Positions 23,986-59,879 of a stretch of DNA of 64,000 bases are shown here, piece by piece (the stretch's first letter is position 1; each line of letters opens with the position of its first letter). Location: contig QPGO01000064.1 in NCBI GenBank assembly GCA_008632985.1, forward strand, positions 248,001-312,000, written 5' to 3'. Both the position numbers and the translations under genes were made by a program. Below the pieces are notes generated by a model. That model was not told the origin of the DNA and searched no databases. It saw only the letters and a program-made list of their open reading frames with translations. Origin of the DNA: Psammoneis japonica. Its lineage: Eukaryota.

Positions 23986-26083
23986 TTTGCACTTCGCGTA
24001 GCATCAGCACTGAATGTTACGTAGCGCCCTTCATGATGGAATCGCACAACAGCATTTCTCTCTTGCCCTTTTTGCATAAATGCCAATGCCATGACCAGCA
24101 ATGACATTGTTGTTGTGATCAGGTCAATTGCGCCGGTTTCAGCTCTAGAGTAGATGTAATGCGTAGTTCAAATTTGGCGAAGAATTCCATGGTCCGTGCG
24201 TCGTCAGGATCAGAATCTTTTCAGCCACGGCACCATGATTGCACTGCTTTTTACTGATGTTTCCATGCAGGGCTTTGCTTTTTCATCAACATTGCAACAA
24301 CAATGCGGCAAAGCATCATCTCGGAAGCACCCACCAAACACCACATGCTGGCATCGTCAAGCAAGAAGAGAGGTGCGCTGCCTGCTGCAACAATGAAAAA
24401 TCTTGTGATGCTGCAAAGAGCACAAATGCCCAGCTCACTCAGTGTGTGTCCGAGCGCAAGGAGCAAGCAGAGGACCATGTTTTGGCCTCCAGAAAGCCTC
24501 CCATCAACAAAAACACCTCCTCTCATGGCAACTTTGCATCAAAAAATGTCTTTTTGCTCACTTTTGTTCTTTTTGCAAAAAACTCTCATCTCATGTGTCA
24601 AGAGCAACAAGAGCATCTTTCTCTCCTTGGGGCCTTCTTGCGCAACCCTTGCAAGAACCGTCTGGCTGAGAATGGATTGCATGTCATTCATGGACAAATT
24701 GCCACCAAGAACATTGGCATCTTTTGCCATCAACTGGCCCTGAAGGATCAAGACCACGAGCACGACCTGGTCACGGCATGGAGTGCAGCACAGGGAGTTG
24801 TGCTCTTTCTTGACAGCTCTTGGCCAGTGGACTTGGTTGGCGAAAGGGGGGCTGACAATCTCTGGGGATGTCACCATGATGTGACCTGTGGCAGCACACC
24901 ACCTGGCAACAAAGACTGGCCCAACCAGCCTTTCTCTCATTCTCTCCACGGTGTTTTGTCACGTCGTGCACTCCGACTGGCCGTCTGAAGTGATTGCGGT
25001 GGTTTGCAGTTGAACACTCGAACAGAGCCACATTTCTATGATGTCTTTGACGAGAAAATCTTAGAGCTTCAACAGTGGGGAGCAAAACGACCCATCGGCC
25101 ATCATTGCCGACACAATCTTTTCGTGTGTGCAGCAAAAATGAACGGCATGTGATGCTGCAGCTTTCGATCTGTGGGCTTTTCCCGTGCTTTTCGAGCCAG
25201 TCCTGTTGCCCCTAACTTCAAGATGTGACCAAAGTGAGCAAAGCGATCACAACCGGAAAAGAAAACTGAAGCACACAACAAGCAGTGTGATCACCTAAAT
25301 TTTGTGGGAAAAAAACCGTTGAACAATTTGGTGGATGAATGTGTTTCAATGATCACATCTCTCCCTCAAACACTGTCATCCGAACAAACCCTCAGTGTCT
25401 CACCCCCCTTTTCACATGAGGAATTTGGCTCTGCTGTTCGTTTTCTCCGATGACGCGATTTGAGAAAAAACCGTTAAATTGAGCAGTGATCACCTCCATT
25501 TCCCACAAAATGGAGGTGATCACTGCTTGTGGCCGGCAACCATTCGCAGCGCTCGTGGCATCGCTTCAGGCTTCGGGCAAGCTGTTCTATGCCACAAACT
25601 CTTGGACCATGATTCTCAACCAAAAATGCCATGAGCACAATGTTTCGCATTGGCATTTGTGTTTCAAATTCAGCCCAGAAAGCAAAGATTCTTCCCTCCG
25701 ACACGACGGTTGACGGTTCATCGTCCACCACGGCACACTGTGGGCAACAGTGCTGTGCAGAAAGGGCATGAAGAGAGAAACTTCCAAGAGGCAGATCAGA
25801 TCATCAAAGGACTTTCCCGCCCACTCGACACCTTTGAGAGATGTCATGAGGCTACCCGAACCGTTGTGCGTCACTCTTGAACTCTTGACATCAGGTCTTG
25901 CCATTCCCGAACCACGTCTGCGACTAAAAATGAGAATGCTGTGAGAAACCGCGACTGCAGTCACGGCGGATGCTGAACGATGACGAGAAATCTATGGCGT
26001 TGTCCTGCACTTTTTTTCTTGCAAGGTCGCTTTCATCCTTTCCACTGTTTTTTACTTTGCTCTGCAAGACGTTCATCCACATC

Positions 26084-28679
26084 ATGGACCGTCGCAACAA
26101 GCATGACGATGAAGATCAAACAAAAGAATCAGAACAAGATTTTGAAGATTTGGTCTGTGATTTCAAAGAAGCTGCGTCTCCTGACAGCTGCAAGGAAAAG
26201 ATGATGAACAACCCCCAGCACGCTTCTCATCAACGTCATCAAGAACGAAAAGAAGCCTTGATGCTTGACAGCGAACAAGTTGAGATGGCTTCAAACGATG
26301 TTTCAAGTGCACGTGATCAAGAGATGCCGTCTCCTGGAGTCGCAGATCAGCGGCACAATTCTGATGGCCATGATGACGTGCTTCCACATCCTGGAGCTCA
26401 ACGAGTGGGAGGAAATGACCAGGAGGATGAAGAGACTCTGTTCTTGTTTACAAATCCTCCTTCTACGTCTGAGCAAGAAGCAGCACAGGCGGCACCCACC
26501 CCGACGGCTTTTCTCGTGCCTCCACCAGGACGTTGGGAACAATGGTGGTCCAAGACCCGCAACCGTCATCTGTTGATTGGTGGGGTCCTGGCAGTCGTTG
26601 GGGCTCCAGTGGCGGGGGTGGTGACCTTGGCTGTTGAAACTTCACCTCCGACGACCCCATCTCCAACGAACGTGCTGGACTTGTCAGACCTGGACGGCTC
26701 CAACGGCTTTCTCATCAATGGAATCGGCAGCTTTCCCCTGTCATCTGCTGCTTCTGTGGCAAGTGCGGGTGATGTCAATGGCAACGGGATCCATGATGTG
26801 GTTGTGGGAGGTCAGTTTGCAGAAAGTTTGGACACTGGCGAGGCCCATGTCATTTTTGGGCGACATGACTTTCGTCCCGCATTCAGCGTGAACACCTTGG
26901 ATGGGTCCAATGGATTTGCTGTCTCGGGAGCCAATTCGTCCGACAGAACTGGATGGGCAGTGGTGGGTGTGGGGGATGTCGATGGTGATGGGTTTGCTGA
27001 TGTCTTGATTGGCGCCTGTGACGCAGATCCTTTGGGCCGCGACGCAGCTGGAGAAGCCTGCGTGGTCTTTGGCAGACCTTGTGGTTTCCCTGCCAATCTT
27101 GATTTGTCGACCCTTGATGAACGCAATGGCTTTGCGCTGCGTGGCATCAATGGAGGTGATCAAGCGGGGTGGTCTGTTGCGACAGCTGGTGATGTCAACG
27201 GGGATGGTTTTGATGACATTGTCATTGGAGCTCCTGGACCTTTTGCTTTTGAGAGCGGCGATCGTCCAGGTGCCGCATGTGTCATTTTTGGCAGAGCAGC
27301 AAGTTCTTTCCCTTCTGCATTTGATTTGTCAACACTCGACGGAATCAATGGCTTTTCGCTGATTGGGATTGAGAATGGTGACAATGCAGGGGTCTCGGTT
27401 GCAGGTGCCGGCGATGTCAATGGCGATGGTCTTGGTGACCTTGTTGTCGGGGCACACAGTGCCACTCGAAATGGCAATGTTGATGCTGGCGAGGCCCATG
27501 TCATTTTTGGAAGAGCCGGCGGTTTTGAATCTTCCATCAATTTGTCTGCACTCGACGGAAACAATGGTTTCATCTTCAAGGGGACTGACGAATTCGATCA
27601 CACAGGGAAGTCAGCAGCTGGCGGCGGCAATGTAAATGGAAACGGTCTGGACGATGTCATGATTGGTGCGCACAACGCTGGTCCGGGTTCTGATGCTCCC
27701 GGTGAAACATGTGTTGTCTTTGGGAAGTCTGCAGGCTTTGATTCTTTTCTGGATTCTTCAATGCTTGACGCGTTCCAGCCCTAGGTGGGACTCCGTGTGA
27801 CATTGGGCCCGTAGAATTCTACGTGCGAGCTCCGTAGTACGAGAATTTAATTAATGGATATATTTATCTTCAACATCAAATAAACGGCCAAGTTTGTGGT
27901 ACAATTATGCCTCTTACCACTCGACGTTTTTGCAACTTCGCCTGCCCTACGCGATTCTTAAGACATTGTAGAATCGCGCTGCAACAAAAAATGTCAAAAG
28001 TTGTTGGACGGATCGCTCAATAAGTGCACCGTAAAATGACACAAAATATCGAAAAAATCACGTAGAAATCTACGTGCGCGACATACGACGAGACTCAAAA
28101 AACTATCGATGTCACAGTTCAGTAGTACGAGGTCCCACCTAGACCTGGAACGCGTCGCTTGACGGCACCAATGGATTTGTCGTGAAAGGTGTCAACAATT
28201 CGGACCATGCCGGGGAATCTGTCGCTGGTGTCGGCGATTTCAATGGCGATGGTTTTGACGATGTCATTGTTGGTTCCCATGGCGCAAATCCAGACAACAA
28301 GGATGACGCTGGACAGGCATGCATTGTCTTTGGAAAGGGTGCCAGTTTTGCCTCTGCGATTGATTTGTCAACGCTGGATGCCAAGAATGGTTTCATCATG
28401 AACGGCGTTGCTCCTGGTGACTGGGCCGGGTGCGCAGTGGCCAGCGCTGGTGACGTAAATGATGATGGCTGTGATGGTGTCTTTGTTGGGGCACCCGGTG
28501 TTCTTTCAGGTGGTGAGGCCCATGTCGTTTTTGGTGACGGAGCGTGCAAAAAACCCAGAAACAGCAATGGCAGGGCCCCAGTGATGCGGAGGATTGGATT
28601 CACAAGGGCTGGAAATCAAGTTCAAATGCGAAGACAGTTTGTGTTGTCTCACGCCGCCCTTCTTTTTTGCTCTTCATGA
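26084..28679 (+). pseudogene. Type-II membrane FG-GAP (integrin-alpha beta-propeller) repeat gene, hypermutated and interrupted by a MITE
   Basis: Seven LDG.NGF...AGDVNGDG.DD..IGA...G.A[H/C]V.FG repeats, TM segment, PTTPSPT linker, zero Tyr. Removing 27767-28160 restores the frame (SMLDGTNGFVVKG). Confidence 0.9.
27767..28156. mobile_element. 390-bp non-autonomous TIR element (MITE), complete copy
   Basis: 25-bp TIRs GACGCGTTCCAGCCCTAGGTGGGAC / GTCCCACCTAGACCTGGAACGCGTC (2 mismatches), 4-bp TSD GCTT (27763-66 and 28157-60), second copy at 50940. Confidence 0.95.
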
Positions 28680-29600
28680 ATGGAATGTTCGTGGATGCAA
28701 TGTCGCCTTGTTGTTGTCAACGGGTCAATTTGTGGCCAAGTCAAATCTTGATGCGATTCCTTGGTGCGCGCAAAGTCAGGGGCGGAATCCACTTTTTTCC
28801 CTCCGACGTTTGCAGCTTTGCTTCAGCGCTCATCTTTGGCTGCGACATCTGAGTTCGTTGGTTTTCCTGCAATCATGTGCAAAACTGGGATTGCTTTGTT
28901 GTTTCGTCAACGGTGGTCATTGTTGCGACTGCTCATCTTGCTACAAATTGCCAAACACTTGGCAAAAACGCACGCAAACCGCCTTCGTTCGCCTCTGAAG
29001 GGAAAATTTCCATTCGTTGCGATTTTGTGCCAGAGCCACGTGGAAATTTACAGCGCTGCGTCTTGCTGCTTTCCGACTCCCGCCTCCGACCTCCGATGAA
29101 GACACGGCGAAGCACGAGGATGTGTCCGACAATGGCGGTGCCCATTGTCATCGATTCTGCCAATTTTCACACTCTCCCGTGTTTCATTTAACTCCAAATG
29201 GTGATGAAAGAGAGCTTTGGTGCTTTGCATTTTTTCCATTGGCGGTTTCACTCACATTTGTTCTCCGTCTGCACCATTTTGACATCCCAGCTAGTGTGAC
29301 GCGTAGTTTTTGCTTCTATTCAGGAGCATTGCGGCTTAAGTTGTCGTTCATCAACCAACACTGGTGAAATTCGTTCGATTGTTGAATGCCTGGTGTTGCT
29401 GTGTGCACATTTGAGGCAATGGGAGGGCAAGAAATGGCTCGTGCAAGAGCGCACAACGCGTCATGTTGCTTGACAGATGCAACAGATGGCAGAGTTGGAT
29501 GTGATCAATGAAGAGGTTGAATTTATGGTGCACAGGAGGGCAAACATCAACTTCTCTCTGTCGGCGGAGGGAGTGACTCGCTCACAACTAATTTTAGATT

Positions 29601-30320: not shown

Positions 30321-30624
30321 TGAAGAGTGCGAGCGGTGTCATCTGTGTTGCAAAAAATCAACGCGCGGGAGGATTGTGTACTTTTCTACGTAGGCTGGTA
30401 GATCGAAGATCGCCACCTGGACAGAATAAATCGATATTCGTCTCTGAAGATTTTCATTGATCTGCAACCCGGAAGTGAAAGATATTCCCTCCGACACCGC
30501 GATCCGTATCTTTTCCTGGCTTCGCGTTTTGCAACCCCGATAGGAGCTGAGAATGAATCGACAACTACTCTCCCCGAGATAGCATAACGTTGTTGTTAGT
30601 ACTCTGATCGTAGTAGCACTGAAA

Positions 30625-33181: not shown

Positions 33182-34141
33182 GCAATGGACGGTATTGCAT
33201 TTGAAAAGACGAACGCGGTTGGGGCTGGTTGGAATTGTACGTTAAATAATTTTTGAACATTTTGCTTTCGATTGTATTGTAAAGTAGAGTATTGGCTTTT
33301 GCATCTCTTAGTTAGCATGCGGAAAAGTCACCTTTCTTTGACTCTAGCACCCGTGCACTCTAGAGTGGAATGAACTGGCGTCTCAAGAAAGGATCGAGCC
33401 TCTGACCTTACCCTTGTACCACAATCATGTCAGGCGACCAACTGTGCTTCATATACAGGCACGAGAGGGGTATCCATGGCAAAGGCACGAGAAGAAGAAT
33501 AGAATACACAGATAGAACGAAAGATGGGGAATAAATAAAGCACACACAATGTCATGCTTTGTTGGAAAAATGACAGTGTGTTGTCCCCGACAGTGATTGA
33601 GATCTCGACCAATGATGTTGTTACTTTGCTTCTACTCTAACCCACCATTTTCTCAGAAGCTAGATTGCATTCTAGACAGACATAAAACTCAATGAGCCTA
33701 GATTCTCGCTTGAGGACAATCTCGGACGGCTCCATGTAGCTCAACAGCTAGAGTCTATTCGCTTGCTACAAATCCATAGAATGGTGTCGTCAAGCATCCA
33801 TCTGGCGGTCAACTCGCTCCTACGTCTGGGTGACGCCCGAAACCCACACATTCGCAAGCATCAGTTTCCGATGAACTTTTTTCAAACGAACCTCATTTCA
33901 CGACAAAATTTTGATCGAACCTACCTCAAGCAACCCACTTTTGGCGAGGCTTTCGGCGAGGGTAAATGGAGGGCAAACCTGCAGTTTCAAAAATCACTGC
34001 GTAGAAATACGTAGAATCAGTACCACAAGCAATCCCACCACAGACCATCGAAGCAAATCGGCAAAATAGTTCTGCTGCTGAAGCTCTCACAATCCTCTTG
34101 CTCGTTGTAGAGTTACGGTTGTACCCCTTGCTATTGCAGTT

Positions 34142-35218
34142 ATGCTTTTTATGCTATCAACTCGATACATGCGCTCTCGCTTTTGCACCCAGCTTCGTTC
34201 TGGCGTGATGGGTATTGCAGTTCATGACCCACAACAAAGAACTGTGCTTGCTGCTGCGGTTTTCGTGACTCGGCAGCAGCGTCCTTTTGCATCGATCGCT
34301 GGTGGGCAACATTTGGCGTTTGTTGAGTTACCCACCATCATGACGGTTCCCATGGGATTCGGAATGAGACGTTCGCTGACTGCTACACTCTCGCCTGGCT
34401 TGAGATCTTCTCTTGTAGTGGCACAGCGGGCCGTTGCCGGTTCTTGCAATTTCGCTCTTACTTTGCGACTCACCGACTCTGTTTCTCCTTCGTTCTCTTC
34501 TATGCAGATCGTACCATATCGTCCCACTTTCCCTCTCAGATGGCTCTTGATTTTGTTGGAATGTCGTCGGAAGATTGCTGAAAGGATCCAGTTGTGCCGA
34601 GCCGTTCAAGATTTCGTTCGAGAAAAGAAGAGACGCGTCGAGTCACGAGCAATCTTGATGAAGAAGGTGTACAAAGATATCAAGAGACTGCATACAACGA
34701 AGAAGCGTCGGCAAGACAAAGCGGATAAGCTTGCGATCCAGGATTACACAGGCTCGGGGTACTCGGAGATTAACAAGTTCCTTCGTGGTCAGCAAACGTT
34801 GTTGAATCCCGAATTGTTGAAGTCACGAGCCAGCAACGTGGATCACGCACTCCAGCATTGTCCAAAGCTGAACTCCTTCAGTGGTGTTGTGTATCGTGGT
34901 ACGGAGCTATCGCAAGATTTATACGATTCGTTGAAGCCTGGTGGCACCTTTTCCGACCCAGCCTTTCTGAGTTCATCTCGCAAGAAGGAAAAGTGCAAGA
35001 GGTTTATCACCGGTGAAGGCGGCTGCAATACTCTCTTCGAGATTGAGAGCAAGACGGGCTTGGACGTAAAAGCGTTGGCACTCAAAAAGAATCAGCATGA
35101 ATGTGAAGTATTGTTTCGGCCAGGCACAAAGTTTCTTATCAAGTCGGTTGAAGAGCGAGTCGATTCCATGTTTGGAAGAATCACGGTTGTCTCGATGGAA
35201 CAACTTGTCAACTGGTGA
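34142..35218 (+). CDS. ADP-ribosyltransferase exoenzyme-family (R-S-E clade) protein
   Basis: YTGSGYSEINKFLRG, VYRGT (R), FLSSS (S), HECEVLF (ExE). Confidence 0.85.
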   Translation: MLFMLSTRYMRSRFCTQLRSGVMGIAVHDPQQRTVLAAAVFVTRQQRPFASIAGGQHLAFVELPTIMTVPMGFGMRRSLTATLSPGLRSSLVVAQRAVAGSCNFALTLRLTDSVSPSFSSMQIVPYRPTFPLRWLLILLECRRKIAERIQLCRAVQDFVREKKRRVESRAILMKKVYKDIKRLHTTKKRRQDKADKLAIQDYTGSGYSEINKFLRGQQTLLNPELLKSRASNVDHALQHCPKLNSFSGVVYRGTELSQDLYDSLKPGGTFSDPAFLSSSRKKEKCKRFITGEGGCNTLFEIESKTGLDVKALALKKNQHECEVLFRPGTKFLIKSVEERVDSMFGRITVVSMEQLVNW

Positions 35219-40587: not shown

Positions 40588-40949
40588 GTTTCGTTAACTT
40601 TTAATGGTACAACCTATTCAGAAAGTGAACGTTAAGCAATTTCCCTTCTCTTTTAGGCCATGTGCTATCACAAATCGTTGTCAAAGCGTCGCTGCCAGTA
40701 TGACTCACACAACAACATCGACACGAGAGCGAGAAAATAAAAAGCTGGAAGCACATCAGTTGAAACCTCCGCGCGAATCTGTCGCGCGAGAATCAATCTG
40801 ACGCGTCTGTCAGCTTCCGTATTAATCCGTTAAAAAGTGGTTACTAGCTACCAAAGAGACTTGTATTGTTTTACATGCGTGAAGTTTGTACCAGACCTAC
40901 GTCCTAATCGCGAAAAGAGATTGGAGGCATTGATGACCGGCAGAATGAC

Positions 40950-41560
40950 TTTTGGATCCAACAATGACTTCTCAAGTCACTTTGTCAATGAGGCCCAACA
41001 TGTTTTTGAATGACTGTTCTCTCGCTTCTTTCCGAGCATTTCCGATGCGAGGGGTGAGGGGCGCTTTGGCCTTGCTAGCTGGATGTCGCCTCTCTCCCAT
41101 GTAGATGATGAGCCTCATCCATGAGCCTCTCTCTGTTTCCATGTCTGAAGAGAGAAATGGAGATGAAAGGATGGAGCCCTCAACAAGCCAGAAGAAGCCG
41201 GCCCAGCTTCGTGCTCTTGCTGCGAGACCCCTCTTCCAGCCTTTTTTCTCTGGCTGGGGCACTCTTTTTGCTTTGTTTGTTGCTGCGGGTGCCCACCAGC
41301 AAGCTAGAAAGCAAGGTAGATTCTCTGTTGTTTAGAAAAATGGCACATTTCATGAGCCCCGCCACACCCACCACAGCTGCCAGCAGAGAGACAAGACAGG
41401 TTTCTTTGTCACACCAGCGCTCTCTGCTGCATGCAGTGGGCTCTTTCCAGAGGGCCCTGGGGCACCAAGCAGAAGCCATGTGTGAAACAACTGGCCAGAA
41501 AGAAAAGTGATCGTGGTGCCTGGTGGTGGTGCAGTTCAAAAATAAAAAGTGATCGTCGTG
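40950..41560. other. TpA-depleted island B (probable repeat fragment)
   Basis: ~600 bp with only ~6 TA, flanked by TA-normal intergenic DNA. Confidence 0.7.
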
Positions 41561-42102
41561 ACGACTTCACTTTATAATTTTGTCACAGACATACGGCTTT
41601 AGTTTACTCGTAATCAAGAACGAAGGACTTGGAATGCTTATCCGTTGAGTTTGGGCAGTTCCAAAGCATTTAGTGACTGTCCATTCCACTTACCAATCTG
41701 TAAGATATGAAAGAAAACGAAAGTCGCTATTTTCAGTCGGATATCGCACTAAGTATTTCAGCCCAAGACAATGTAGTAAAGCGAATCCTACCAAGAATCA
41801 AGATTGAGACGTATGTAACTTACTTGCCACGTGGAAGGCCTGACTGTGCTTTCCTAAGCATGCACTCGCATTGGGCCTGTAGACAGCCAGATGACTGCAT
41901 AAATGTTCCCGTTTTAGCGGGCGCTCCTACTCGTGGATAATTATTGTTCACAGCTACGTAGGAATCCTACTGAGGTCAACGCAAAAACGGTATCTTCCTT
42001 CTCAATTTTCAACGGATCGATTCGCGGCCACGCTGTTTGTTCATAAAAGGTTCTTGGCAGATGAAACATTATCACAATACAACGCAGCAGACAGTTGCAA
42101 CA

Positions 42103-43008
42103 ATGAAGATCTCTACCTCCAACCTTCCTGTCTCATCCTTTGATAAGTCTGCTCCGTCGGCTGCTATGGTTGGTACGGCGACTATGACGACGACAAGCAC
42201 CGTTGTCAGCGACGACGAGTTGTCCATTCCCTCGGAGCCTGAAACAGTCGTGAATAAGGTGTACCAAGAGTGGAAAACCGGCGGATCGAACAACGACTCA
42301 ATCCTTCACCACGAACCAGATCTCATGGAGGTGGATGAGATTCTTGAGTCTGATATGATTCCTGAAACTATGGACGAGTGCGGTGCTGCTCTGGATTTTA
42401 CTCTTAGCGGTGAGACTCCGCTTTCCATGACTGTGGAAGAAGAAGAACGGCTCATTCATCCCTTCTCGCCCATGCCCGCGATGAAGTTGACTTCTCAGTC
42501 TTGGGATGAACCACCGTTTAGTCCGCTCTTGACCAAGGACAGGTATATGGCTGCTTGTGTCTCTCCTACCACTCTCCATGGAGAAATGGAGACTTCTTTG
42601 GAACAAGAAGAAAACGAGAAGAAGAAGCGAAAGTTGTCGCCTCTTCCTTCTCCTCCATTGACTTCGAAAGCCACCAAGGACGATAAGGAACTCACCATGG
42701 AGGAAAAGCTTGAGAACGCAAGTCAGAAACTCGCTGAATCCATGAAGCGCAGTCAAATGACAAGAGCCAGTCTCATTTTCAAGCCCATGGTGGACGAGTA
42801 CACAGACGAGAACGACGTCAAGAGCTTGCTTGGAAAGATTGAAGAATCGACCAATCAAATCCATCAGCAAATGAACTTGAAGCGATCCAACAAGGATGGA
42901 TTCTCAGAAGAAAGTATCCGAAAGCTTCTCTACACGATTGAAGAATCTACAAGTCAATTGCAAAGACGGCTCTCCTTCACTTCCGATACTAGTACTACCG
43001 AGCAATAA
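42103..43008 (+). CDS. Hypothetical acidic protein
   Basis: Intact ORF of ~300 aa with KLAESMKRSQMTR and LL..IEEST.Q repeated twice. Confidence 0.7.
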   Translation: MKISTSNLPVSSFDKSAPSAAMVGTATMTTTSTVVSDDELSIPSEPETVVNKVYQEWKTGGSNNDSILHHEPDLMEVDEILESDMIPETMDECGAALDFTLSGETPLSMTVEEEERLIHPFSPMPAMKLTSQSWDEPPFSPLLTKDRYMAACVSPTTLHGEMETSLEQEENEKKKRKLSPLPSPPLTSKATKDDKELTMEEKLENASQKLAESMKRSQMTRASLIFKPMVDEYTDENDVKSLLGKIEESTNQIHQQMNLKRSNKDGFSEESIRKLLYTIEESTSQLQRRLSFTSDTSTTEQ

Positions 43009-43085
43009 AACTACTGTATAGAGGGGAACATCATTTTTGCACTTCTTTTGGTATATACTATACTCCGTATCAAGCTTTTTAAAGG

Positions 43086-43740
43086 TTCATCGTCGCGGTG
43101 TCATAAGCGGTTTCTCGTTGGATTACTTGAAAATATATGCCGACACAAGGCGCATGGAACGCTTATCTATCATTCCAACTAAGCTTTGTTTACAAGGGGC
43201 AAATGAGAAAACGACACCAAGCAGCTGCTTTCTTTAAGTCTGGTGTTCAAAATCTACTCCAGAATCTACGGTAATGCAGACTTCTCGCTGAAAGATTGAG
43301 TTCTAGGTCCTACCTTTTGCGACATCCAACACTTTATGAGAGATGGAAGTAACACTTCTTATTGGTTCTTTTCATGATATACCCCTTGTAACTAGATGCT
43401 CCAACAATAGTCGAACTTACCACGGCAAAGACGTACCAAGCTCTTTACACTTCAACGTTGCGGTGTCATCAGGGGTTTCTCGATGGCATGCTCATCTATG
43501 ATTTCCAACTGTGCTTTGTGTGCAGGGGGCAAATGAGAAAAGGACACCTAACAGTTGATTTCTTTTAAAAAATCCGGTGTTGAAAATCCACTGCAGACTT
43601 GTTCGCTGAAAGACTGAGTTCTATGTCCTGTTGCACACCTCATTAGAGATGGGACTGACACTTCTTGCAGGCATTTTTCATGACATGCCCCGTTGAACCA
43701 GATGCTCCAAAACCAGTCGAACTTGTTGCAGGCAAGGAAA
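43086..43740 (+). repeat. Diverged tandem duplication (copy 1 ~43086-43450, copy 2 ~43451-43740)
   Basis: Shared GCGGTGTCAT, GGGGCAAATGAGAAAA, CGCTGAAAGA.TGAGTTCTA and AGATGCTCCAA..AGTCGAACTT. Confidence 0.9.
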
Positions 43741-43819
43741 GCGTTTGGGCGCTGTGCACACCAAAGACACAAGAGCAACTTGGACAACTGACTTGGCTGT
43801 CACAAACAACATGTGCACA

Positions 43820-44650
43820 GTTACAAACATTTTTTTCTTGCGGCATCTATTTTTCTGCCTCTGCAAGCTGCAAGAATCCTCACAATGAGCCTTTCATTGA
43901 AGTCAATTGCACTGCGGTGCATTTTGAACTCCTTGACAAGTTTTTCAATGGTCTCTGGAGACATGGATCCCTCCTTGACCTCCAGAGATGTGCCAGCATT
44001 TTCCATGTAAGAGCAAATGCATGGTCAGAAAAACTTGCGTGCTTTTTCAGTGGTGAGCACATTTTTTGCCAACAGTCATTCTCGTGTGAACCAATTCCCC
44101 AATGTCTTGCTTTTCCCTCTTCCTTGACAAGCAAAGGTCGCAAGCAATGGCGCTGCTTTGTCAGCACCCAACAACATTCCTGCCATTTCTGGGTGACACT
44201 TGGTTGTTCAGTCAGTTGCCACAATTATTTTGCAACCTGCTCAAGGCAGCCACAGGAGAAGACCTGTTGACAGTGGCTTCTTGTGGTTGCTTTGGCACTG
44301 ATTGGAGGATTGCATCAACAGGAATCATTGTGGCTCTCAGAGTCATTGTGCAGAAATTGTGTGGAAGAGTGCCAGAAACAATCGTCATCATTCTGTCCAC
44401 CCTTCCACACATGAGTGTCAACTTCTCGGGAAATCAATTGAAATGTCATCTGACCAAAGGCACTGCTCTTCACCATGCAAATCAAAACACCTTTGGTCAA
44501 ACAACACTTCAATTGAGTTTCCGAAAAGTCGCCAGCTCCAGTCACCCTCTCGCACGACATTGTGCGCATTTCTCTGCACGATTTGGTGTTTTTCCTTGTG
44601 ACTCTTGTGACATTTTCAAATGATTCCTGTTGCATGCAATGTGGTCAAAG
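43820..44650 (-). mobile_element. Degenerate IS630/Tc1-mariner-like DDE transposase C-terminal relic
   Basis: Frame-broken TKCHPEMAG..ECCW..TKQRH, VLTTEKARKF and IEKLVKEFKMHRSAIDF segments. Confidence 0.5.
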
Positions 44651-45199
44651 GGGGTGAAGGCCACCCTTTGCACAAAAGGCGCAGCTTTTGATTGTGCAAA
44701 AGTGGCACGATGCAAGAGCAATGGCTGCAACAAGCACTTGAGTTCTTTTGTCAAACTGGCAATGGAAATCAACAAAGTTGTGGCATTGGCACTGGCATCT
44801 TTGGTTGTTCTGTACAAGGGTGTGATGGCATTGAGGAGATCAGCACAGCTTGCAACATTTTTGGCTTTGGGGGTGTTGTTGGGACCAAATGAGGCACCCG
44901 TGCAAATGACATTGGAAGCAACCAAAAGGACATTTGGGCTCTGCTGCAATGTTTTGGCCCTCCAACTTTGATGAAAAGGATTGGCCCATGCTGCCACAAT
45001 CACTCCAAAAGGTTCAACTGGCAAGGAGCTGGTGCCGCTGAAGGAGAAGTGAGAAAAAGCATCAGCAGTTGTTGCACTCAATGCAGCCGTTGACCCAATG
45101 GCAATGACAACCCATCTTTCTAGAGAAATTGAACAGCACAACCACCTTTCATCACACAATGCTGTGCCAGTTGCCTGGAGTTTCTGCTGTCTTGTTGTT

Positions 45200-47450
45200 T
45201 TCCTCAATGGCCAACATCACATGAATGAGATTGTTGGTTGTTGTGTGGGACTGTGTGTGCACCTTGGCACTTCTTGCTCTTTGCAGGCATGACACACCAC
45301 AACATGAGGAGGCTCTCCACACTCAGCCCAAACTGGCTTTGGGACACCCTGCCCATGTTCTCAGCTGCAACCTTGTCAATGTCTGGGAACAGCAAACCAT
45401 CTCTCTTGGGTGCACCACCCAGCCTTCTGGATTGAATTTTGAATCTTTGTCAATTTTGCATGCCTGTCATGACGTGCCCACAGAACAGCTTGCCCCACAA
45501 TGCATCTGCGCTGAAGCTGGGCATCTTGCATCTTGTGCGCAACCCTGCAGTGCTCCTGGTTGACATTTTGACAATGTGTGTTTGCTGTTGACAAGGTGAT
45601 CAGGGAGGACTTGGTTGCAAGGACCTCAAAAAACTTGAGGGAACAAGCAATCTGTTTTCACAAAACCTTTGTCCCCCGTGCATTCTGTGCTGGGCAGAAT
45701 TTTCCAAAGCCTGAGACAGATGTCTCTTGGCTCTGAATCCTCATCCAATGTGTGACTTTCTGGAGTCAAGGGGCCACCAAGCCAGCGCAACACATCCCAA
45801 CAATGCTCTTTTGTCATTTCCAAGTGCACACCAAGAATGTCACAATGCAGCTCCTTCTTGCTGCGCAGCCAATGAAGACACTCATGAATCTCAAGCTGTT
45901 GCAGAGGCTCCTCTGGAGAATTTTTTGTGACAATCCCAAAGCCTTCTCACTCAATTTGCTCTTCCATTTGATTTTGATTTTAACACAACAACTGTGTCAC
46001 CCCCGCCACTCCAGAGTCTTAAATCTTTTCACATCGGCATCTGCCAAAGCCTCGCAAATGTCAACCACTCATCAGCGGCATTGATGGCATGCTCACAATT
46101 TGACTTTGTTGCATTGGCAGAGCCATCTGCTCCATGAGTCAAGCTGCAAATGCTTTCAATGTCAGTTGTGTGCAAGTTGGAACTCTCGCCTTCAGTGCTC
46201 CAATTGCTGTTGCTGTCATCATCTGACCCAACAAAGTTGCCAGCTTCTGAAAACTCATGATGACTCTGCTTCCTCCAGAGTGAACATTTCTGGCATGTTG
46301 CATTGAATCTTCATTGGTTGCATCCTTGTCCATTGCACCCTCATCAACCAACTTTGCCACCTCCTCCAGTTCTTTTCCTGCCAAAAAAATTGACTCAAAC
46401 CATCCAGCAACTCAAGACATTTTGAACCAGTTTTCATTTGGCACTGTCTTTCCACTCTGCAATCATGGCTTTTTCCTTTGGGCAAGCTCCTGTCAACTCC
46501 ACAAAATGTCTCTTGTCAGCCCATGCACCATGTGCCCTGGTGTGCTCAAACAACAGAGCACAAGGAGCAACAAAGTCTGTCCACAGAAAGACAGAGCAAC
46601 GTGCCTTGTTGCCATGCTCTGTGTGTGCACAGTGTGCTGCAACATCCTTTTTACGGTCTCCAAAGTTGCATCTTTCCCATGAAACAACTCAGCTGTTTTT
46701 GATGCATCCTTCTTTGTGAATTTGTTGGGCCTTCTTTCATTTTTGAAATGCTTGCAAGGCATTGGCAATGCAGACAGGAATTCTCCATGCTTTTCCCACC
46801 TTGGCCTGTGTTGATTTGGACAATTTAAGACAGCAGCAAGCACAAAGCCAAAAATGCAGTCAGCATGCTCTCAAATGGGACAACAGTGAATGAAACACTT
46901 CACAGTCAGCACCTGTTCAAACTGAGTTGGTGTCACTGGATCACACACAAGTTTCTTCTCCTTTGAGTCAAACATCACTTTGGGAACCTCCAACATGGCA
47001 CATCAGAAAGAAAGGAAGCCACACACTTCTCAGCCTTGAAAGCAATTGAAGCCTGCCCAAACAAATCCTTTGCAGCAATGGGGTTGCTGTTGTGCCATTC
47101 TTCAGAAGTCAGTTGGCAGCGGTTTGCAGAGTTGTCCTCAAGAAACTCTGCCAAACAGTCCTCTGCATGCTCAGTGAGACAAGCCAAATCAACATCAGGT
47201 TCTGCCTCAGCTTTGCACTTCTTCCTGCTCTTGGCAGCCCAGCTGCTGACCTCTCTTTTGTGCATTTCACATCAGCCCTGGCAATGACTTTAACTCCACA
47301 TTTGAAAGCACATGATTGTTCTCTTTGTTTTCTCATCTCTTTGGCTCAAATTGACAAACTCTCCAAATGTTTGACTGCCGCAAGCTTGCTTGTGTTCCTC
47401 AAGCTTCTGACAAGCAAGATGCTCATTGCGCGCATGTCCTTGCAATGGTT
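45200..47450 (-). mobile_element. Degenerate PIF/Harbinger-ISL2EU-type (DDE_Tnp_4) transposase relic
   Basis: EEWH...AAKDLFG, PRWEKHGEFLSAL, ELFHGKD, LEIHECLH and LRLWKILP..GDKGF motifs with frameshifts. Confidence 0.65.
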
Positions 47451-47599
47451 TTATGAGTCACCTGCTTTGTTCTTGGCTGGAGGTGAAGAAAAGCAGCTTT
47501 CCATGCTTTTTCACACTGCGCTGAGGGTCAAATTTGTCAGCAACCACCTTTGCATCTGCTGCGAAGAACGAGTGTGAACGAAAGCAGAGCGAAGTTCGA

Positions 47600-50500
47600 A
47601 AAGTGAAAATTGTGAGATTGAATTTTGCTCTGTGATTTTTGGTTTCTCCGAAACGAGTTCTCAATGGCCTGAAGCTTCTGCACTGCTTCCACAGACAAAA
47701 GGCCTTTTGGAGAAGATGTTTGTGACAACAGATTGTCCGGATGCGATTGCTGTTGACACGTGAGATGTCAACATCGTCAATCGATCGCACCTGCAATTTT
47801 CGACATCTGATCAACTCTGTGTGATCGTTCTGTCCTTTGCATGCATCCACGACTGTGGCTGCGATTGACGCGCAAATGACACACAATTGCAAACATGTGT
47901 GCAACAGTTGCGTGCTGCACTCGCCTCCCCAATTGCACATTGAAGTTGTTCGTCAAGTGGAACAATTTGACGGACATTGATTTTGTCAACAATGTCTCCA
48001 CGTTAACTGCATTGTGCCATTGGCAATGACTGTTGTTGTTTTGGGTGGGCCAGCATGCATGGGACCGTTTCAATTTCCAAACGTCTTTTGAGAGCATCGT
48101 GATTTGTCTCACGCTTCATGTGTGTGCATGATGCTCTCTGTGCATGTGTGCATGTGGTGTGCTGTGGCATTGCATCGAGCATTCTCTCTGACATTGTTTT
48201 GTTCATGTGGGCACAAGGACCAACTGTCCTGCTGTTCTTTCATGGTGTCGATTGCACACAGCATCATGATTGCACACAGCATCATGCCCAGTGCTCGATG
48301 TGCGCTCTTGTTTGTGGCATTCACTTGCTCGCTGGTGGATTTCGCGCAGTTTGGCGGCTCACTTCATGTGCCACATTGCTCTGCTGCACCACCACGTTTC
48401 TCAAGCAGCAATCAACGATGGTCAAGGATGTGACCATTTCGTCTTGGCAATCAATCCTGTGATGGTCATGAATTCCATTGTGGATTTTTTGTGCTTCAAC
48501 CATCTGTCAGTTGGATTTTGGTCGTCACTTGGATGTTTCTTTTTGACATGCCGGCATCATTTGTCATTCCAAAGGCATTGGTTTCGTGCACCAAGTGGAC
48601 AAATGTCCATTTTTCTTTTCTTTTTCTAGATCTTTGGCACATCTTGTGTGTCGACATGATGCATGTTTTAATGTCTTGCCTCGCACATTGTGCAATGCAA
48701 CCGCGCGGGTGTTGTGAGATTGTCTTTTGCCAGTGTGAAGTGGATGCTGCAACAGTTTTTCTGACCGTCCTTTAAAACAAGGCGATTTTGTCCTTGTGAC
48801 ATGAGCATTTTTCGATCTCGCTTGCCTCCACGAAAAGTGTTCGCACAACATGTCGCGTCCGACAATTTGGAGGGAAATGTCTTTGTCCCATTTTAACGGC
48901 AGGACATTGTCGCAGGATTCAACACTCCGCAGCAAGTCGGCTTTTTTGATTTTAAATTGTGGTGTTCCATGTTTGAAACAAACAGCGTTTCAATCTTTCA
49001 CAATTGGTCAAATTCCTTTTAAATGGACGCCCCCAAGGACTGTGACAGGAGAAGGTTCTCACACGTCGCAGAATCACGTCAGATTTTTCACGGTGAGGTC
49101 CACTGGTTCGCCCCACTCCTTTGTCTGAGGAACTTTTCAAAAGGATTTTGAACCTCTTAAGAAGGAGACTGAGTGGCTGCATTGTTTTGGATTGGATGCA
49201 TTGCTGCAGCTGTCACTTGATTGGAATCGACGGCGTGACAATGTGAGTCGAAGACCACTGGTCTCATCATTGACTCTGTTTGCTGCGTCACATTTCTCAA
49301 TGTGATCGGCATTCAGCTGGAACATTTTTGTGTCGAAGAGTGCATCAACATTCTTCACAGGGCAATTGCTTCACTCCCATTTGATTTCTTCAATTGCGCA
49401 GTCTAACATGATTGCAAGACTGGACACCAAGTCGCGTCCCATGATCACATTGCTCGACCTTGAAGAAGATTTCGTGTCATCGACACATGCTGTTTGAACA
49501 TCAGTGTGTCTTAAATTTGCACAGTGAGAACTGGACTTGGTTTCTGCTGTCAGTCGTGAAGAGCTCACCCTTGGTTTCCCAAGTTTTTTGGTGGCGGACA
49601 TTTTGGTTCTCAACTTTCGCACGATTTTGCGCAAAATCATGGGCTGATGATGTTCTTTGTCGAGAAGAACGTGCTGAAGCTTGTTTTTTGCTTTTCTCAG
49701 AGAAGCAGTCATGCAGATGGCAAGAACAGGACTCGCGCAACATGCCATGATGTTTTTTCTGGGTTTCCAGACGTCCTGCAATGCGGCACACTCCTCGATC
49801 GGTGTAAATTTTTGATCGGACTCGATCGGGTCAATTTTTCTAAATTGACAGTTTTGTTCATCAAGCATTTTAGAGTCGCAACTTTCGCTCTTGTTTTCTC
49901 GTTCCTTTGCCAAGCAACTCGCTTTGTTGGTTTTTGTGAACTGCCCAGTCACTGTGGAGCTCAGTTCCTCTTTCACAGAGGTGTTTCTGCTGTCGTCACG
50001 CGACCGCGCGCGATTGCTGTCAGAGCATCACATTTTTTTGGGTCTCTTTCAGAGCCACCCTTGCACTCTTTTGCTCTTTTTCTTGTTCAAGGAACTCGCT
50101 TTGAGCATTTTTTTGAACTGCCTGATCAATCATGATGTTCAACTCTTTTTTTGCGAGCGGCATTTTCGTTGTCGCGACGCCACGTGCGACTGCCATTAGA
50201 ACAGCGCCGTTTCGGATCACGCTCAATGTGTCCACGGCATTCTTTCGCTGGTTCATTTTTAGAACAGCTTCAATCCATGATGCAGGTGTTCTTTTTTCAA
50301 AGATTGCACCTTTTGTTCACTTTGGATTGTTCAGGTGCCATGTGGGAGACCATTTTGGAATCAAATTTGGAGCCATTTTGGTTTTGGAATCAACTTTGCT
50401 GTCAGCGCCTGATTTGACACATTTTTTCATCATGGACGTCTTCAACGACCTTTGGATGACTCAAAACTTAATCAGCTCATCAAGGATGAGTTGCGACAGT

Positions 50501-50939
50501 TGATTGTTTTGGACAGTGGACTGATGCTGCCATCCTTGCGGTGCGAGCAATGGCCAATGGCTCACGGCTCGGTTTCCCGCCAGATTCAACTTAGAATCGA
50601 TTGAAGGGTCGTGTGGACGCTCTTCATTGACCTCTTGGGTCGAATGGGCACTCTCTTGCTGCTGAGAGCCTTTGGTTTCTTCAGATCATCTCAAAACAAA
50701 TGACTCTGATTCTGAAGTGCAGTTCCTGGAAAGACATGAGATGAGAGACTCTTGAGGCACTTTCCAACGGTTCCTTCTTGCTCTTTGGACTCGAGGCTTG
50801 TCGATTTGGTCTCAAAAAACTCTTCAACAGTCTCTCCTTGCAAAGTAGATGCATTTCTCGGATCTGATCGACTCGGGACTTGCGCTCTCTGCAGCCATGA
50901 CTTGGTGTAGATTTTTTGATGATGCAGTGCACTTGTGGA
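47600..50939 (-). mobile_element. Degenerate Ty3/gypsy LTR retrotransposon relic (gag, protease, integrase; RT/RH largely missing)
   Basis: Protease-like VLLD...IMGRDL..LAIMLD...IKWE, LSLLLKRFKIL, integrase end NGTM..GDIVDKINVRQIVP, and PPT GGGGAGGCGAG (47930-47920) followed by TG at 47919. LTR end not defined. Confidence 0.7.
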
Positions 50940-51311
50940 GACGCGTTCCAGCCCTAGGTGGGACTCCGTGTGACATTTGGCCCGTAGAATTCTACGTGCG
51001 AGCTCCGTAGTACGAGAATTTAATTAATGGATATATTTATCTTCAACATCAAATAAACGGCCAAGTTTGTGGTACAATTATGCCTCTTACCACTCGACGT
51101 TTTTGCAAATGCACCTGCCCTACGCGATTCTTAAGACATTATAGAATCGCGCTGTAACAAAAAATGTCAAAAGTTTTTGGACGGATCGCTCAACAAGTGT
51201 ACCGTAAAATGACACAAAATATCAAAAAATCACGTAGAATTCTACGTGCGCGACATACGACGAGATTCAAAAAACTATCGATGTCACAGTTCAGTAGTGC
51301 GATTCCCACCT
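50940..51311. mobile_element. Second MITE copy, right TIR truncated
   Basis: About 96% identical to 27767-28141. Ends at TCCCACCT with no terminal 15 bp and no TSD. Confidence 0.95.
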
Positions 51312-51945
51312 TGGCCCATGTTGATTTGGACAATTTAAGACAGCAGCAAACACAAAGCCAAAAAGGCAGTTAGCATGCTTTCAAATGGGACAATGGTGCG
51401 TGAAACACTTCACAGTCAGCAAATGTTCAAACTGGGTTGGTGTCACTGGATCACGCACAAGTTTCTTCTCCTTTGAGTCAAACATCGCTTTGGGAACCTC
51501 CAACATGGCACATCAGAAAGAAAGGAAGCCACACACTTCTCAGCCTTGAAAATGATTGAAGCCTGCCCAAACAAATCCTTTGCAGCAATGGGGTTGTTGT
51601 TGCGCCATTCTTCAGAAGTCAGTTGGCAGCGGCTTGCAGAGTTGTTCTCAAGAAACTCCACCAAACAGTCTTCTGCATGCTCAGCGAGACAAGCCAAATC
51701 AACATCAGGTTCTGCCTCAGCTTTGCGCTTCTTCCTGCTCTTGGCAGCCCAGGTGCTCTCTGTTTTCCTGTCAGTGCAAAATTTCAACCTGCAGCCTTGA
51801 ATCATGACAATGTCCCTTTTGACACTCAAGTCCGTTTGCTCCAAAATTTTTGTTTGTCGCATCTGTGTGGGCCCCATGGGTCGCTGCTCCTCCCATTCCA
51901 ACAGTTCAAAGGCAAGGAGGAGTTTCTGCCAACTTTCGCCCATGC
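51304..51945 (-). mobile_element. Second copy of the Harbinger/ISL2EU-type relic
   Basis: 51304-51752 aligns without gaps to 46794-47242. Confidence 0.9.
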
Positions 51946-54872
51946 CTACAGCAGAAGAGGAGCCAGACGGTAATCATGATTTGGAGGACCACAACGGCGA
52001 TGAAGAGAGTGGAATCTCTCGTCAACAGGAATCTATTGGAACAGGCGAAAGTCGGGGTAGTCAAAGGAGGCCCTTGTTAAGGAGTTCGGCTCCGAAAAGA
52101 CATTTTCGCACACAAAGTGTGGAACATACACTAGTTGGTTTGACGAAAGCCATGATGGCTTTTGTCGGGAAGCTTAAAGATGATCACAATCAAAGCAATC
52201 CAGCAAGCGTTCCCGAGGGGTCGCCTGCGGCAGGATTTACCGAAAATGCAATTTTACTTGCAGATCAAGCTTTGAGCAGTCCGACGTCTACTACCGGCCA
52301 CCTTTCGACTGTACCCGAAGGCGAGTCGGAAGTGAATTCGTCGCACTCCAACAGCGATGACAACGAAGATGAAGCAAAAGAGGGCGATAAGTCTCATGGC
52401 CGCATTCCTTTTTTCGGGAAGGTTGTTAAGAATAAAGAGAAGAGAAGAAAGAGTGCATTTGAAGAATCAACCGACAAGTTTAAGGAAGATATGGAGGTGT
52501 GGAGGAACTTTTTCCATCTTCGCCGAGATCGCGTTGCGGCGTACCTCAAGGTGGTTTTGCTTTACCTTTTGGTACCGCTCATTGGAGTTGCAGGTATCTT
52601 GTATTACATCTTCAATAATCCTCCGACGGGAAAAGAGGACGAGACCGTGCCGCTTGATGGGGAAGAAAATCAGACTGCGGGAGCGTCGGCGAGCTTTATA
52701 CTCATCTTTTGTGCTCGTCAAATCATCACATTTTCCATGGCTCTTTCAATGCAAGGCTTCCTTATTGACTTTTTGGCGCTTGACTTGCGTATTGTGTTGC
52801 GAGTTCTTGGGCCCGTTCTAACTTTGTGGCTTGTACAGTCCAGGGGCTGGCCTCATATTATGTTCTGGTGGTCTATCTTTGACTTTGCAATACTGTCAGG
52901 TGACAGCCGCTTTGTCAAACATTGGTTGTTTTGGCAAGATTCGATCGGTTTGTTCAATGAAAGCAACCCTTCCGGAAACATTGTGAGCAATGACTGGTAT
53001 CTCGACATGCTGATAGTTGCCGTGACCGTCAGCGTCGTTGTTTCCATCAAGCGTTTCTTGGTTGGGCTCTACTTGAGCCGCCAAACATTCTCTCATTACG
53101 GCCAACCGCTTGCCAATGTCATGAATAAGATTGTTCTTGTCAGTGAGGTTGCTGGATTGGCGAGATCTATTGCTAGCGACGATGTTGAGCCTTCAAAATC
53201 ACAGCTGATTCAAAGTACGGGCTTAGGCATTTCATACGATGGCGAAGATGACGGCAATACCTGCAAGAGTTCGGCTAGCGGTGGTCCCGATCTTATTGTT
53301 GACACGAACAACATCGATCCCCTTACTGGCAGTCTCCATTACACAGAAAAGATGAAGTTGATGCAGCTTCTCGACCAATGGGAAGAACCAACACGGCATG
53401 ACCCTGGAAGCAGCGAGAATGCTACGATTTCAGCTGTTCTAAGGTTCCGAAAAGCCCTCACTTTCGTTCAGAATCGATACCCTTTTGGTCAAGCGTTTGG
53501 TCTTGCAGATAATAGGGAGACTTGTGTCGAGTCTGCACAGAAAGTTTACCTTCGTCTGATGACGCATTCGCCGACCGAAGTTCTTCAATTTGAAAGGATC
53601 GCTTTGCTCGCTATCGATGACAACGAAAACATTGACCCAATCAAAGCTAAGGATTTGATACAAGTCTTCCGCCCTGATCGTCAAGGTTTCCTGACAATGA
53701 TTGACTTTGTTCGAAGTGTCGATTCTGTTTACAAGGAGTTCCGTTTGCTCGACGCAAGCATACAGAATTCCTCGCAGATTGATCGCGCATTCGAAAATAT
53801 TTTTAACTTCGTGTTTTACACGATTGTTGTTATCATTGTTCTTTCACAACTCGGGTTGTAAGTTTCTTTCTATTTTGTTGCTTGCGTACGATGCTGTCTG
53901 CTTTTTCATTGAGCCATTTTTGTTCCCAATTCTTTTGCAGTGATCCCTTGGCCCTGTTTTTGTCGCTTAGCAGCATCATTTTGGCATTTGCGTTCATGAT
54001 TGGAAATGCTAGTGCCAATTACTTTGAGGGGTTGTTGTGTAAGTCCCTACTACTTCAACTTTTTTTGGCGCTTCCAAAATAGACTCGATTCTCACGCTTT
54101 TTGCTGCGCCCTAAAGTCATTCTCGTCAGAAAGCCGTATGGTATAGGAGACAGGATCTCGGTTGCTCCTGTAGAATCCGATACTTCTCTCGATGGTGTAA
54201 TGCCGTGGGTGGTACAGCATGTGACTCTTTTTGAAACTGTGGTGACTTTCTTACCAACGAACGAGACTGCCAGTCTGTCAAACGGTTCTTTAGCAGCGAG
54301 TCGCATCGTCAACTGGGCGCGTTCACCGCAGGCCCAATTCCATATTTTTCTTGAGTTTCCTTTGGAAACTCCTTACGAGAAGCTCTTGATCTTCAAGACG
54401 GCCATTGAAGAGTACATCAAGGCGCGACCCAGGGAGTGGCGGGCATTGAATGGATTCCGTGTGAATCGCATTTATGCTCAGAAGAATTACATTGAGTTTA
54501 TCATTGTCATTCAGTAAGTTTTTCCCGAGAGTGCATTAAGATGACAATGCCACGATGGCTCTCTGGATCTGACTCACTTGTGATTTTTTCTTTTCATTGC
54601 GAAACAGACACCGGGAAGCTTGGCAGGAGATAGGCACGGTCTTGGATTCCAAAGCCAACTTGACAAGTTACTGTCAAGAGGTCTCTAAGCAGCTTGGTCT
54701 GCAGTACCAGGCACCGAAACTTCCTGTGGACTTGCGTTACAGCGCCATGCCCGCGGAAGAAGAATCATCCGGGGAATCCAACCGCAGCCGAGTAGATAGC
54801 CTTGACCAGGAAGCCTTACAGAAGGAATTTCAATCAGTAGCGCGAAACAAACATCAAATTCGGGCTGGTTGA
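51942..54872 (+). CDS. MscS-like mechanosensitive channel with EF-hand; three introns; 5' end uncertain
   Basis: TM helices, FRPDRQGFLTMIDFVRSVD EF-hand, FAFMIGNASANYFEG, VRKPYGIGDRI, NGSLAASRIVNWARS. Introns start ~53858, ~54039 and ~54514. Confidence 0.9.
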
Positions 54873-59635: not shown

Positions 59636-59879
59636 GGTGCAATTCAATTCTCGCACTCTTCTCTCTCTCGTTTGCGTTTTTGCGCTTATGAGCTGTGGAT
59701 TCGTAGCAAGCAATGGGCAATCGCGAATTCCAGTTATGCCAATGCCTGATATCAACTCGTGGTTCTTCTTGTGCTCGAGAAATAAAGGCTCGCCATGTTG
59801 ACGGTTGCCTTCATTGTCATTGCATAAAGCGAATCGATCATCGGCAACCAACATCGTCTGTCCTTCGCTGTTGATGAAC

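Follow-up and report, generated by a model that had tools for sequence, protein, structure and literature searches.

What acted on one of two adjacent copies of the same DNA and spared the other? The copies form a tandem duplication in contig QPGO01000064.1 of the diatom Psammoneis japonica (assembly GCA_008632985.1, positions 248,001 to 312,000; this stretch of 64,000 nucleotides is the window, and coordinates count from its first base). Copy 1 has kept its TA dinucleotides, while copy 2, at the left edge of an 8.3-kb TA-poor block (block B), reads TG or CA at most of the same sites. The probable answer is a positional process acting in place on DNA, most likely by adenine deamination, which turned TA to TG or CA in copy 2 after the duplication arose.

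Tandem duplication at a block edge

A repeat search gave a head-to-tail arrangement with a period of 366. The copies were aligned with MAFFT and have a mean column identity of 80%; about 79% of aligned bases match. Gaps of 36, 16 and 12 nt make copy 2 shorter than copy 1. The duplication was missed by Tandem Repeats Finder, as expected given a match of only about 79% and the long gaps. Copy 1 begins 63 bp past the stop codon of the open reading frame (ORF) 41974-43008. No ORF is common to both copies, which rules out a coding role for the duplicated unit.

The copies differ at 59 of 285 aligned bases (alignment columns 2-356), with 32 transitions and 27 transversions; read from copy 1 to copy 2, the transitions are T>C (14), A>G (9), C>T (7) and G>A (2). 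Copy 1 contains 23 TA, five of them facing gaps, and the 18 that are aligned read TG (7), CA (6), TA (3), TC (1) and GA (1) in copy 2. Copy 2 contains six TA, one facing a gap; the aligned five read TA (3), AA (1) and GA (1) in copy 1, and TG or CA at none. Exchange between TA and TG/CA is consequently asymmetric, at 13:0 (two-sided binomial p 2.4e-4). Transitions outside TA are balanced, with A/T in copy 1 at ten sites and in copy 2 at nine; the two classes differ (Fisher p 0.004). An earlier note on this DNA, made from the sequence alone, had described TA facing TG/CA at about a dozen sites and given ten examples. All ten were found (copy-1 positions 43164, 43191, 43255, 43311, 43360, 43378, 43380, 43393, 43408 and 43418), and three more (43180, 43335 and 43350) complete the 13 of 18 aligned TA.

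The earlier note also placed the duplication across a domain edge, with copy 1 outside and copy 2 inside. This placement is correct, although copy 2 belongs to the margin of the block and not to its deep interior. Two-state segmentation sets the left boundary of block B at 43650; in the alignment, the first converted TA already stands at 43493. TA is retained in copy 2 at 43446, 43497 and 43622. From 43629 onward, eight of nine aligned TA have become TG/CA and the remaining one reads GA. TA present only in copy 2 is found at 43549, 43566 and 43644. Among block edges, this one is the least sharp.

Each duplication unit has a 25-nt inverted repeat, 76% complementary (43190-43214 / 43367-43391), whose outer 10 nt pair perfectly (TTACAAGGGG / CCCCTTGTAA). 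The unit may have originated from a small element able to form a hairpin.

Distribution and context of TA loss

Averaged over the window, dinucleotide composition (rho TA 0.45, CA 1.32, TG 1.28, CG 0.90) masks two regimes. Two-state segmentation over 12,347 TA, TG and CA sites, complemented by rho values per 1-kb window, gave six TA-poor segments in which the probability of TA per site is 0.021, against 0.215 in the background. These segments form four blocks, designated A, A', B and C (Table 1). In the core of block B (1-kb windows 44001 to 50001) rho TA is 0.03-0.14, compared with about 0.4-0.75 in most non-block windows; rho TG/CA reaches 2.07 among 1-kb windows, and the longest TA-free runs reach 1,169 nt. 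TG and CA counts are 768/740 in block B, 256/254 in block C, and 358/321 and 160/111 in the two parts of block A. The near-equal numbers in blocks B and C indicate that both strands are affected alike.

Most block edges are sharp, within tens of bp. At the left edge of block A, TA occurs at 24146, 24151, 24157 and 24164, and after 24252 there is none for 785 nt. At the right edge of block C, the TA at 61763 is followed by others at 61893, 61902, 61913, 61920 and 61925. The blocks occupy intergenic space; between the end of block C and the stop codon of a DUF5010/CBM gene there are 47 bp. Block A' is a 616-bp island, poor in both TA and CG and with sharp edges, upstream of ORF 41974-43008.

Many ORFs can be found in the blocks because the stop codons TAA and TAG are almost lacking. 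There are 78 of at least 90 amino acids (aa) across about 17 kb; they overlap in several frames, measure 90-250 aa and encode products with much Cys and His. Such blocks, with their spurious long ORFs and pseudogenes without Tyr, will probably mislead gene finders.

The TA that survive in blocks have a distinctive context. Of 67 residual TA, 35 lie in YTAR (Y, pyrimidine; R, purine), compared with 273 of 1884 in the background, and one lies in RTAY, compared with 602 of 1884 (chi-square p 9e-18). TTAA is 5.8-fold over-represented among these survivors; ATAT and ATAC/GTAT are absent (0/67). Since survivors are rich in YTAR and poor in RTAY, the preferred target is RTAY, a palindromic four-base site. 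Among the 13 events in the duplication, the side of the flank preference (5' or 3' of the changed base) could not be distinguished.

CpG is also affected. Rho CG is 0.91-1.10 in the five large background segments and 0.21-0.90 in the blocks. CpG depletion with an excess of TpG/CpA is as CpG decay predicts; this decay accounts for part of the TG/CA excess and none of the TA loss. CpG decay is rejected as the sole cause, as it cannot remove TA. The two losses are only loosely coupled: in block A, TA is down to 2% of sites at a rho CG of 0.69-0.90.

A series of events can be proposed. A 366-bp non-coding stretch downstream of a diatom gene would first have been duplicated in tandem. A process working on DNA would then have altered the 8.3-kb block to the right, turning TpA into TpG or CpA on both strands equally; it would have extended some 250-300 bp into copy 2, halted near the copy junction and spared copy 1. 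The process would act in place on chromosomal DNA, its reach set by location rather than by sequence or partner; it would prefer RTAY and spare YTAR, and CpG decay, which cytosine methylation is expected to leave, would go along with it. Its chemistry would be enzymatic deamination of adenine in DNA to inosine, which is read as G. Likely targets would be silenced, methylated and gene-free DNA (repeats, pseudogenes and old insertions), as has been proposed for Bigelowiella natans. The enzyme, its tie to chromatin or methylation and the direction of change in the duplication itself are all inferred. Targeting of the methylated state is suggested because CpG is depleted and because diatom transposable elements are methylated (PMC9998398). 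The action could be chromatin-guided or spreading, as the earlier note had proposed.

Thymine instead of adenine could be the base that is hit in the same positional process, either through modification of T at TpA or through aberrant glycosylase repair, with T>C as the result. A T>C change on one strand is A>G on the other, and the sequence data fit both equally well. TpA is palindromic and its products are symmetric, with seven TG and six CA in the duplication and the balance noted above in block B; RTAY is palindromic too, as expected for recognition of double-stranded DNA. In dinoflagellates, 5-hydroxymethyluracil preferentially replaces T at TpA, which counts in favour of a thymine target. 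No sequence feature, however, favours thymine over adenine deamination, and the B. natans authors propose an ADAT2-like deaminase, from predictions only (bioRxiv 10.64898/2026.01.13.699255). A thymine target is considered unlikely.

Direction of change

Copy 1 resembles the background in composition, with rho TA 0.80, CG 0.96 and TG/CA 1.01 all inside the background 5-95% range. Copy 2 has rho TA 0.26, CG 0.51 and TG/CA 1.49, all outside this range and displaced toward block values. Composition favours TA loss in copy 2. TA occupies 36% of sites in copy 1 and 2% in the block interior; the regimes consequently differ by position whichever polarity holds. The earlier note had made its reading depend on TA being the ancestral state, which is too strong, as this positional difference would remain even if TG/CA were ancestral.

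Further copies were sought as an outgroup. Low-stringency blastn with both copies found no third copy of the unit within the window, and contigs of one sample held no further copy at 80% likeness or above. A metagenome scan gave 0 matches to a 23-nt block common to both copies and 0 to the terminal repeat of a small element described below.

The lack of an outgroup gives some room to the reverse polarity: the unit would have been TA-poor at duplication, and copy 1, outside the block, would have regained TA via C>T at CpA/TpG. The rho TA of copy 1 stands at the 91st percentile of the background, and the 13 changes among about 53 TG/CA sites, set against ten transitions at other C/G sites, are only about a two-fold excess. 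Copy 1 would, however, have to regain background TA, CG and TG/CA jointly while remaining 80% identical to copy 2. Copy 2 has gained no TA from TG/CA, the background is without TA-making pressure (as the window averages of TA, CA and TG given above indicate), and the changes in block A run from TA to TG/CA. Even under reverse polarity, copy 2 would still need position-dependent maintenance of low TA. This alternative is therefore judged quite unlikely.

In block A, direction can be assessed from a protein. An ORF with FG-GAP repeats contains 0 Tyr in 616 residues. It is cut by a copy of the small element, past which FG-GAP repeats resume at 28143-28676 (+); because of this interruption, the ORF is probably a pseudogene. 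Across 120 homologues there are 1164 Tyr cells, at which the ORF has Cys 368 times, His 285, Phe 107 and Tyr 0. All five Tyr-consensus positions are Cys (three) or His (two), whereas five control homologues have Tyr at 37 of 39 such positions and Cys/His at none. A change of TAY to TGY or CAY replaces Tyr with Cys or His, matching the TA>TG/CA signature. Judged by this protein alignment, the changes in block A ran from TA to TG/CA. In block B, ORF 51443-51973 aligns with its one weak homologue at two Tyr, and both are Cys in the window. Loss of TA is also favoured by mutation-accumulation lines of B. natans, in which TpA>TpG/CpA changes were observed directly (bioRxiv 10.64898/2026.01.13.699255).

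Homologues of the FG-GAP ORF that carry an organism name are bacterial (cyanobacteria, planctomycetes and proteobacteria). The ORF may be what is left of a bacterial-type gene.

Copy number and origin of the blocks

Depth was taken from contigs of runs X1-X3 (one sample, one study) matched at 80% likeness or above. The duplication is at single-contig depth (54.6; 42900-43760). In the right half of block B, summed contig depth is 1,264-39,468, and 4,996 contigs of run X1 matched; this half and the small element are high-copy, while the left half belongs to no family recognisable in Pfam or homologue searches. Residual TA number 12 in 3.85 kb on the left and 17 in 3.3 kb on the right. Rho CG is 0.14-0.28 on the left (44-47 kb), the strongest CpG depletion, compared with 0.53-0.83 on the right. 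Since the left half is the more depleted in both TA and CG, its state is not mere spill-over from the repeats of the right half. Positional action in place is supported by the unconverted twin 366 bp from copy 2, together with the low depth of the duplication and of most of the left half.

At 44416-44534, where the left half shows its depth bump of 5,937 (neighbours about 60-300), there is a 45-nt inverted repeat, 80% complementary, with arms 29 nt apart. This may be another small repeated element.

Pfam at curated score found nothing besides FG-GAP in the 78 block ORFs, and eight further ORFs searched at E up to 1 gave no credible family. The one weak homologue of ORF 51443-51973 is without a Pfam family. 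ORF 44545-45216 had no homologue and no viral relative in searches, and no viral genes were recognised in the blocks by Pfam or homologue searches of block ORFs. ORF 49374-50027 matched a viral contig over 40 residues; this single match, with an E of 4e-4 computed among candidates only, was taken as chance.

The small element is about 374 bp long, with inverted ends of about 25 nt and normal TA and CG. Its two copies, one in block A and one in block B, are 96% identical and hold 26-27 TA each (27 in 362 nt for the block B copy). Summed contig depth is 203,877, whereas unique DNA in run X1 is at about 55. The canonical 3' end was seen in other copies, from loose contig ends at 51302. By these features it looks like a very abundant miniature transposon. 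Normal TA inside the blocks implies either that the element is younger than the main conversion wave or that the process is episodic; the three TA present only in copy 2 likewise point to later origin or an episodic process. The two in-block copies differ at 12 of 362 aligned bases, and five of the seven transitions are between TA and TG/CA. Roughly two would be expected if change were undirected, so that ongoing activity on the element is suggestive only.

Block B contains a pair of paralogous segments near 46.8 and 51.3 kb. Five CG of the 51.3-kb copy read TG/CA in its 46.8-kb paralogue, and four sites are TG in one and CA in the other. Between the window and run X1 contigs, similar swaps occur as adjacent double transitions: CA versus TG at 44271-44272 and TG versus CA at 45188-45189. 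Such swaps are compatible with a single ancestral TA, or a single CG, having been converted separately in two lineages, and hint at recent activity without proving it.

It is very improbable that the blocks are insertions which were already TA-poor on arrival, such as foreign DNA or elements that had been edited at the RNA or cDNA stage. Sharp block edges suit such an origin, as do the high-copy family at 47.5-50.9 kb, which is TA-poor across many genomic copies, and the island 40922-41537, which resembles an inserted piece. Against it, copy 2 arose locally from DNA with normal TA and lost its TAs where it sits, and an FG-GAP ORF with all Tyr codons turned to Cys/His is unlike any working gene; block B, like the duplication, has single-contig depth over most of its left half. 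Selection against TA and CG (nuclease or stop-codon avoidance) instead of biased mutation would suit the low level of both palindromic YR dinucleotides in blocks, but is hardly credible given that the affected DNA is non-coding, interrupted or degenerate, that conserved Tyr is replaced, and that depletion goes to rho 0.03 with sharp edges beside genes of normal composition.

Several observations weigh against positional deamination in place. The duplication is a single natural experiment (n = 1) and, no outgroup having been found, polarity there is indirect. The high TA of copy 1 within the background range belongs here too; ordinary C>T could, by a rough estimate from the same 53 or so TG/CA sites, have made two or three of its 13 TAs, in which case not all 13 sites need be losses in copy 2. 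The three TA unique to copy 2 and the TA-rich in-block element are unconverted, which means that the process is not continuously saturating. Sharp edges elsewhere fit insertion-defined units as well as chromatin boundaries. Finally, as the right-half family is TA-poor in many genomic copies, some TA-free DNA may have arrived converted.

More tentatively, and with somewhat less than even confidence, the blocks may reflect a base-editing defence of diatom chromosomes. Such a defence would convert TpA to TpG/CpA, with RTAY preferred, in place on silenced, cytosine-methylated DNA, and would stop tens to hundreds of bases from active genes. If this is true, then together with the chlorarachniophyte case it would indicate an old defence across the stramenopile-alveolate-rhizarian (SAR) group, a mirror image of fungal repeat-induced point mutation (RIP) that needs no homologous partner. 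The boundary of the defence could then be read at single-site resolution from natural duplications.

Comparison with known hypermutation systems

A full-text literature search found the TpA signature only in a 2026 preprint on the chlorarachniophyte B. natans, and nothing for diatoms. In that alga, Mettrop et al. describe localised TpA>TpG/CpA hypermutation of integrated viral DNA, with a main target that is single-copy (bioRxiv 10.64898/2026.01.13.699255). Two hypermutable regions gathered 231 mutations in mutation-accumulation lines, all but one of them (230) A>G or T>C, and according to the authors every such change fell on TpA. The genome has 124 clusters of TpA-poor, CpA+TpG-rich windows. 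The authors liken the TA motif to that of ADAR (same preprint).

The footprint in P. japonica is of the same kind, in a second and distant algal lineage. In both cases A:T>G:C transitions occur only at TpA and produce TpG or CpA by strand, and there are discrete regions of clustered TpA-poor, CpA+TpG-rich windows in an otherwise normal genome. Activity appears episodic in both. Homology is not needed in B. natans, where the main target is single-copy, and the idea of independence from homology is therefore not new. In the present case the host is a diatom, and depletion goes further: rho TA is 0.45 for the B. natans region derived from a nucleocytoplasmic large DNA virus, well above the values of the block B core. 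CpG is co-depleted in P. japonica, while 'CpG' occurs 0 times in the B. natans main text. That main text is also without flanking context, on which the supplementary tables may bear; RTAY is preferred over YTAR here. No viral genes were recognised in the diatom blocks. The diatom footprint is known from sequence alone, whereas de novo mutations were seen in B. natans. Near-saturation, the RTAY preference and CpG co-depletion are therefore new relative to the B. natans report.

RIP, like the process proposed here, causes local transition hypermutation at one dinucleotide, inactivating repeats and pseudogenes. RIP converts CpA to TpA, whereas the blocks have lost TpA and gained CpA/TpG; in addition, only one of two adjacent copies is affected, single-copy DNA is affected and the host is not a fungus. 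RIP has a minimum of about 400 bp for tandem repeats. The earlier note had contrasted the two on the grounds that RIP mutates both copies. Opposite direction and the single copy hit uphold the contrast, and on these two grounds RIP is rejected; the contrast was nevertheless overstated, as 366 bp is short of that minimum and RIP leaks into unique flanks. RIP can also reach neighbouring unique DNA (PMC7296669). Diatom DNMT4 is related to RID (PMC9998398).

The same note held that position in the domain, and not a homologous partner, determines mutation. The regimes do differ by position, but a repeat of 366 bp says little about dependence on homology. Sparing of copy 1 disfavours a purely homology-guided trigger.

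Methylated transposable elements undergoing CpG decay share with the blocks low CG and high TG/CA; the blocks differ in that TA is lost too. ADAR and APOBEC editing share a deaminase-like transition signature and a 5' T/U preference. These enzymes act on RNA or on cDNA before integration, whereas here a chromosomal duplicate and a pseudogene were changed; APOBEC, moreover, gives C>T and not A>G. ADAR-type RNA editing via retro-copies is rejected, as copy 2 is a local tandem duplicate at single-contig depth with an unedited twin.

The same footprint, near saturation, in a diatom implies that the process is not peculiar to one alga. The duplication serves as a natural internal control, in which the same DNA has met different fates 366 bp apart; this argues for position-limited action in place rather than for targeting through sequence identity alone. 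Both the RTAY bias and CpG co-depletion provide handles for an enzyme search and for tests of the link to methylation.

Further features of the window

Table 1. Coordinates of the duplication, TA-poor blocks and associated features in the window
Feature	Position	Strand	Observations
Block A	24169-27776 + 28146-29585		TA 14/693, 9/280 sites; rho CG 0.69, 0.90
FG-GAP repeat ORF	25934..27784	+	block A; Pfam FG-GAP E 8.1e-24 and 8.9e-10
Small element copy	27767-28140		interrupts block A, cuts FG-GAP ORF
Block A'	40922-41537		TA 5/116 sites; rho CG 0.33
Upstream ORF, 344 aa	41974..43008	+	no Pfam family; copy 1 sits in its 3' flank
Copy 1 of tandem duplication	43071..43436		non-coding; background-like dinucleotide composition
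Copy 2 of tandem duplication	43437..~43745		edge zone of block B
Transitional edge	43446..43650		mixed kept and converted TA
Block B	43650-50841 + 51374-51943 (8.3 kb overall)		TA 29/1537, 0/115 sites; rho CG 0.47, 0.34
Block B left half	43761..47491		most depth bins 62-129, some to 305, one bump 5937
Paralogous segment	46793..47259		93% identical to 51303-51766; both TA-free
Block B right half	47492..50935		high-copy repeat family, TA-poor
Small element copy	50940..51311		inside block B; 3' inverted end not intact
Right-hand tail of block B	51374..51943		TA 0/115 sites; ends near first ATG codons of ORF 51801-53861
Block C	59839-61886		TA 10/520 sites; rho CG 0.21
DUF5010/CBM gene	61933-63669	-	adjoins block C

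Three other ORFs in the window have recognisable domains or relatives. ORF 34082-35218 (+), in DNA of normal composition, has an ADP-ribosyltransferase domain (Pfam ADPrib_exo_Tox E 9.5e-12, ART E 5.7e-07). In ORF 30583-32526 (+), a flavin monooxygenase-like domain (E 1.2e-22) is joined to one of the phosphonate-binding periplasmic type (E 3.3e-21), which is an unusual fusion. The best matches of a cytochrome P450 ORF are at 72-80% identity; its organism-named matches, mostly at 39-49%, are all diatom (Thalassiosira, Fistulifera, Bacillariaceae and MMETSP).

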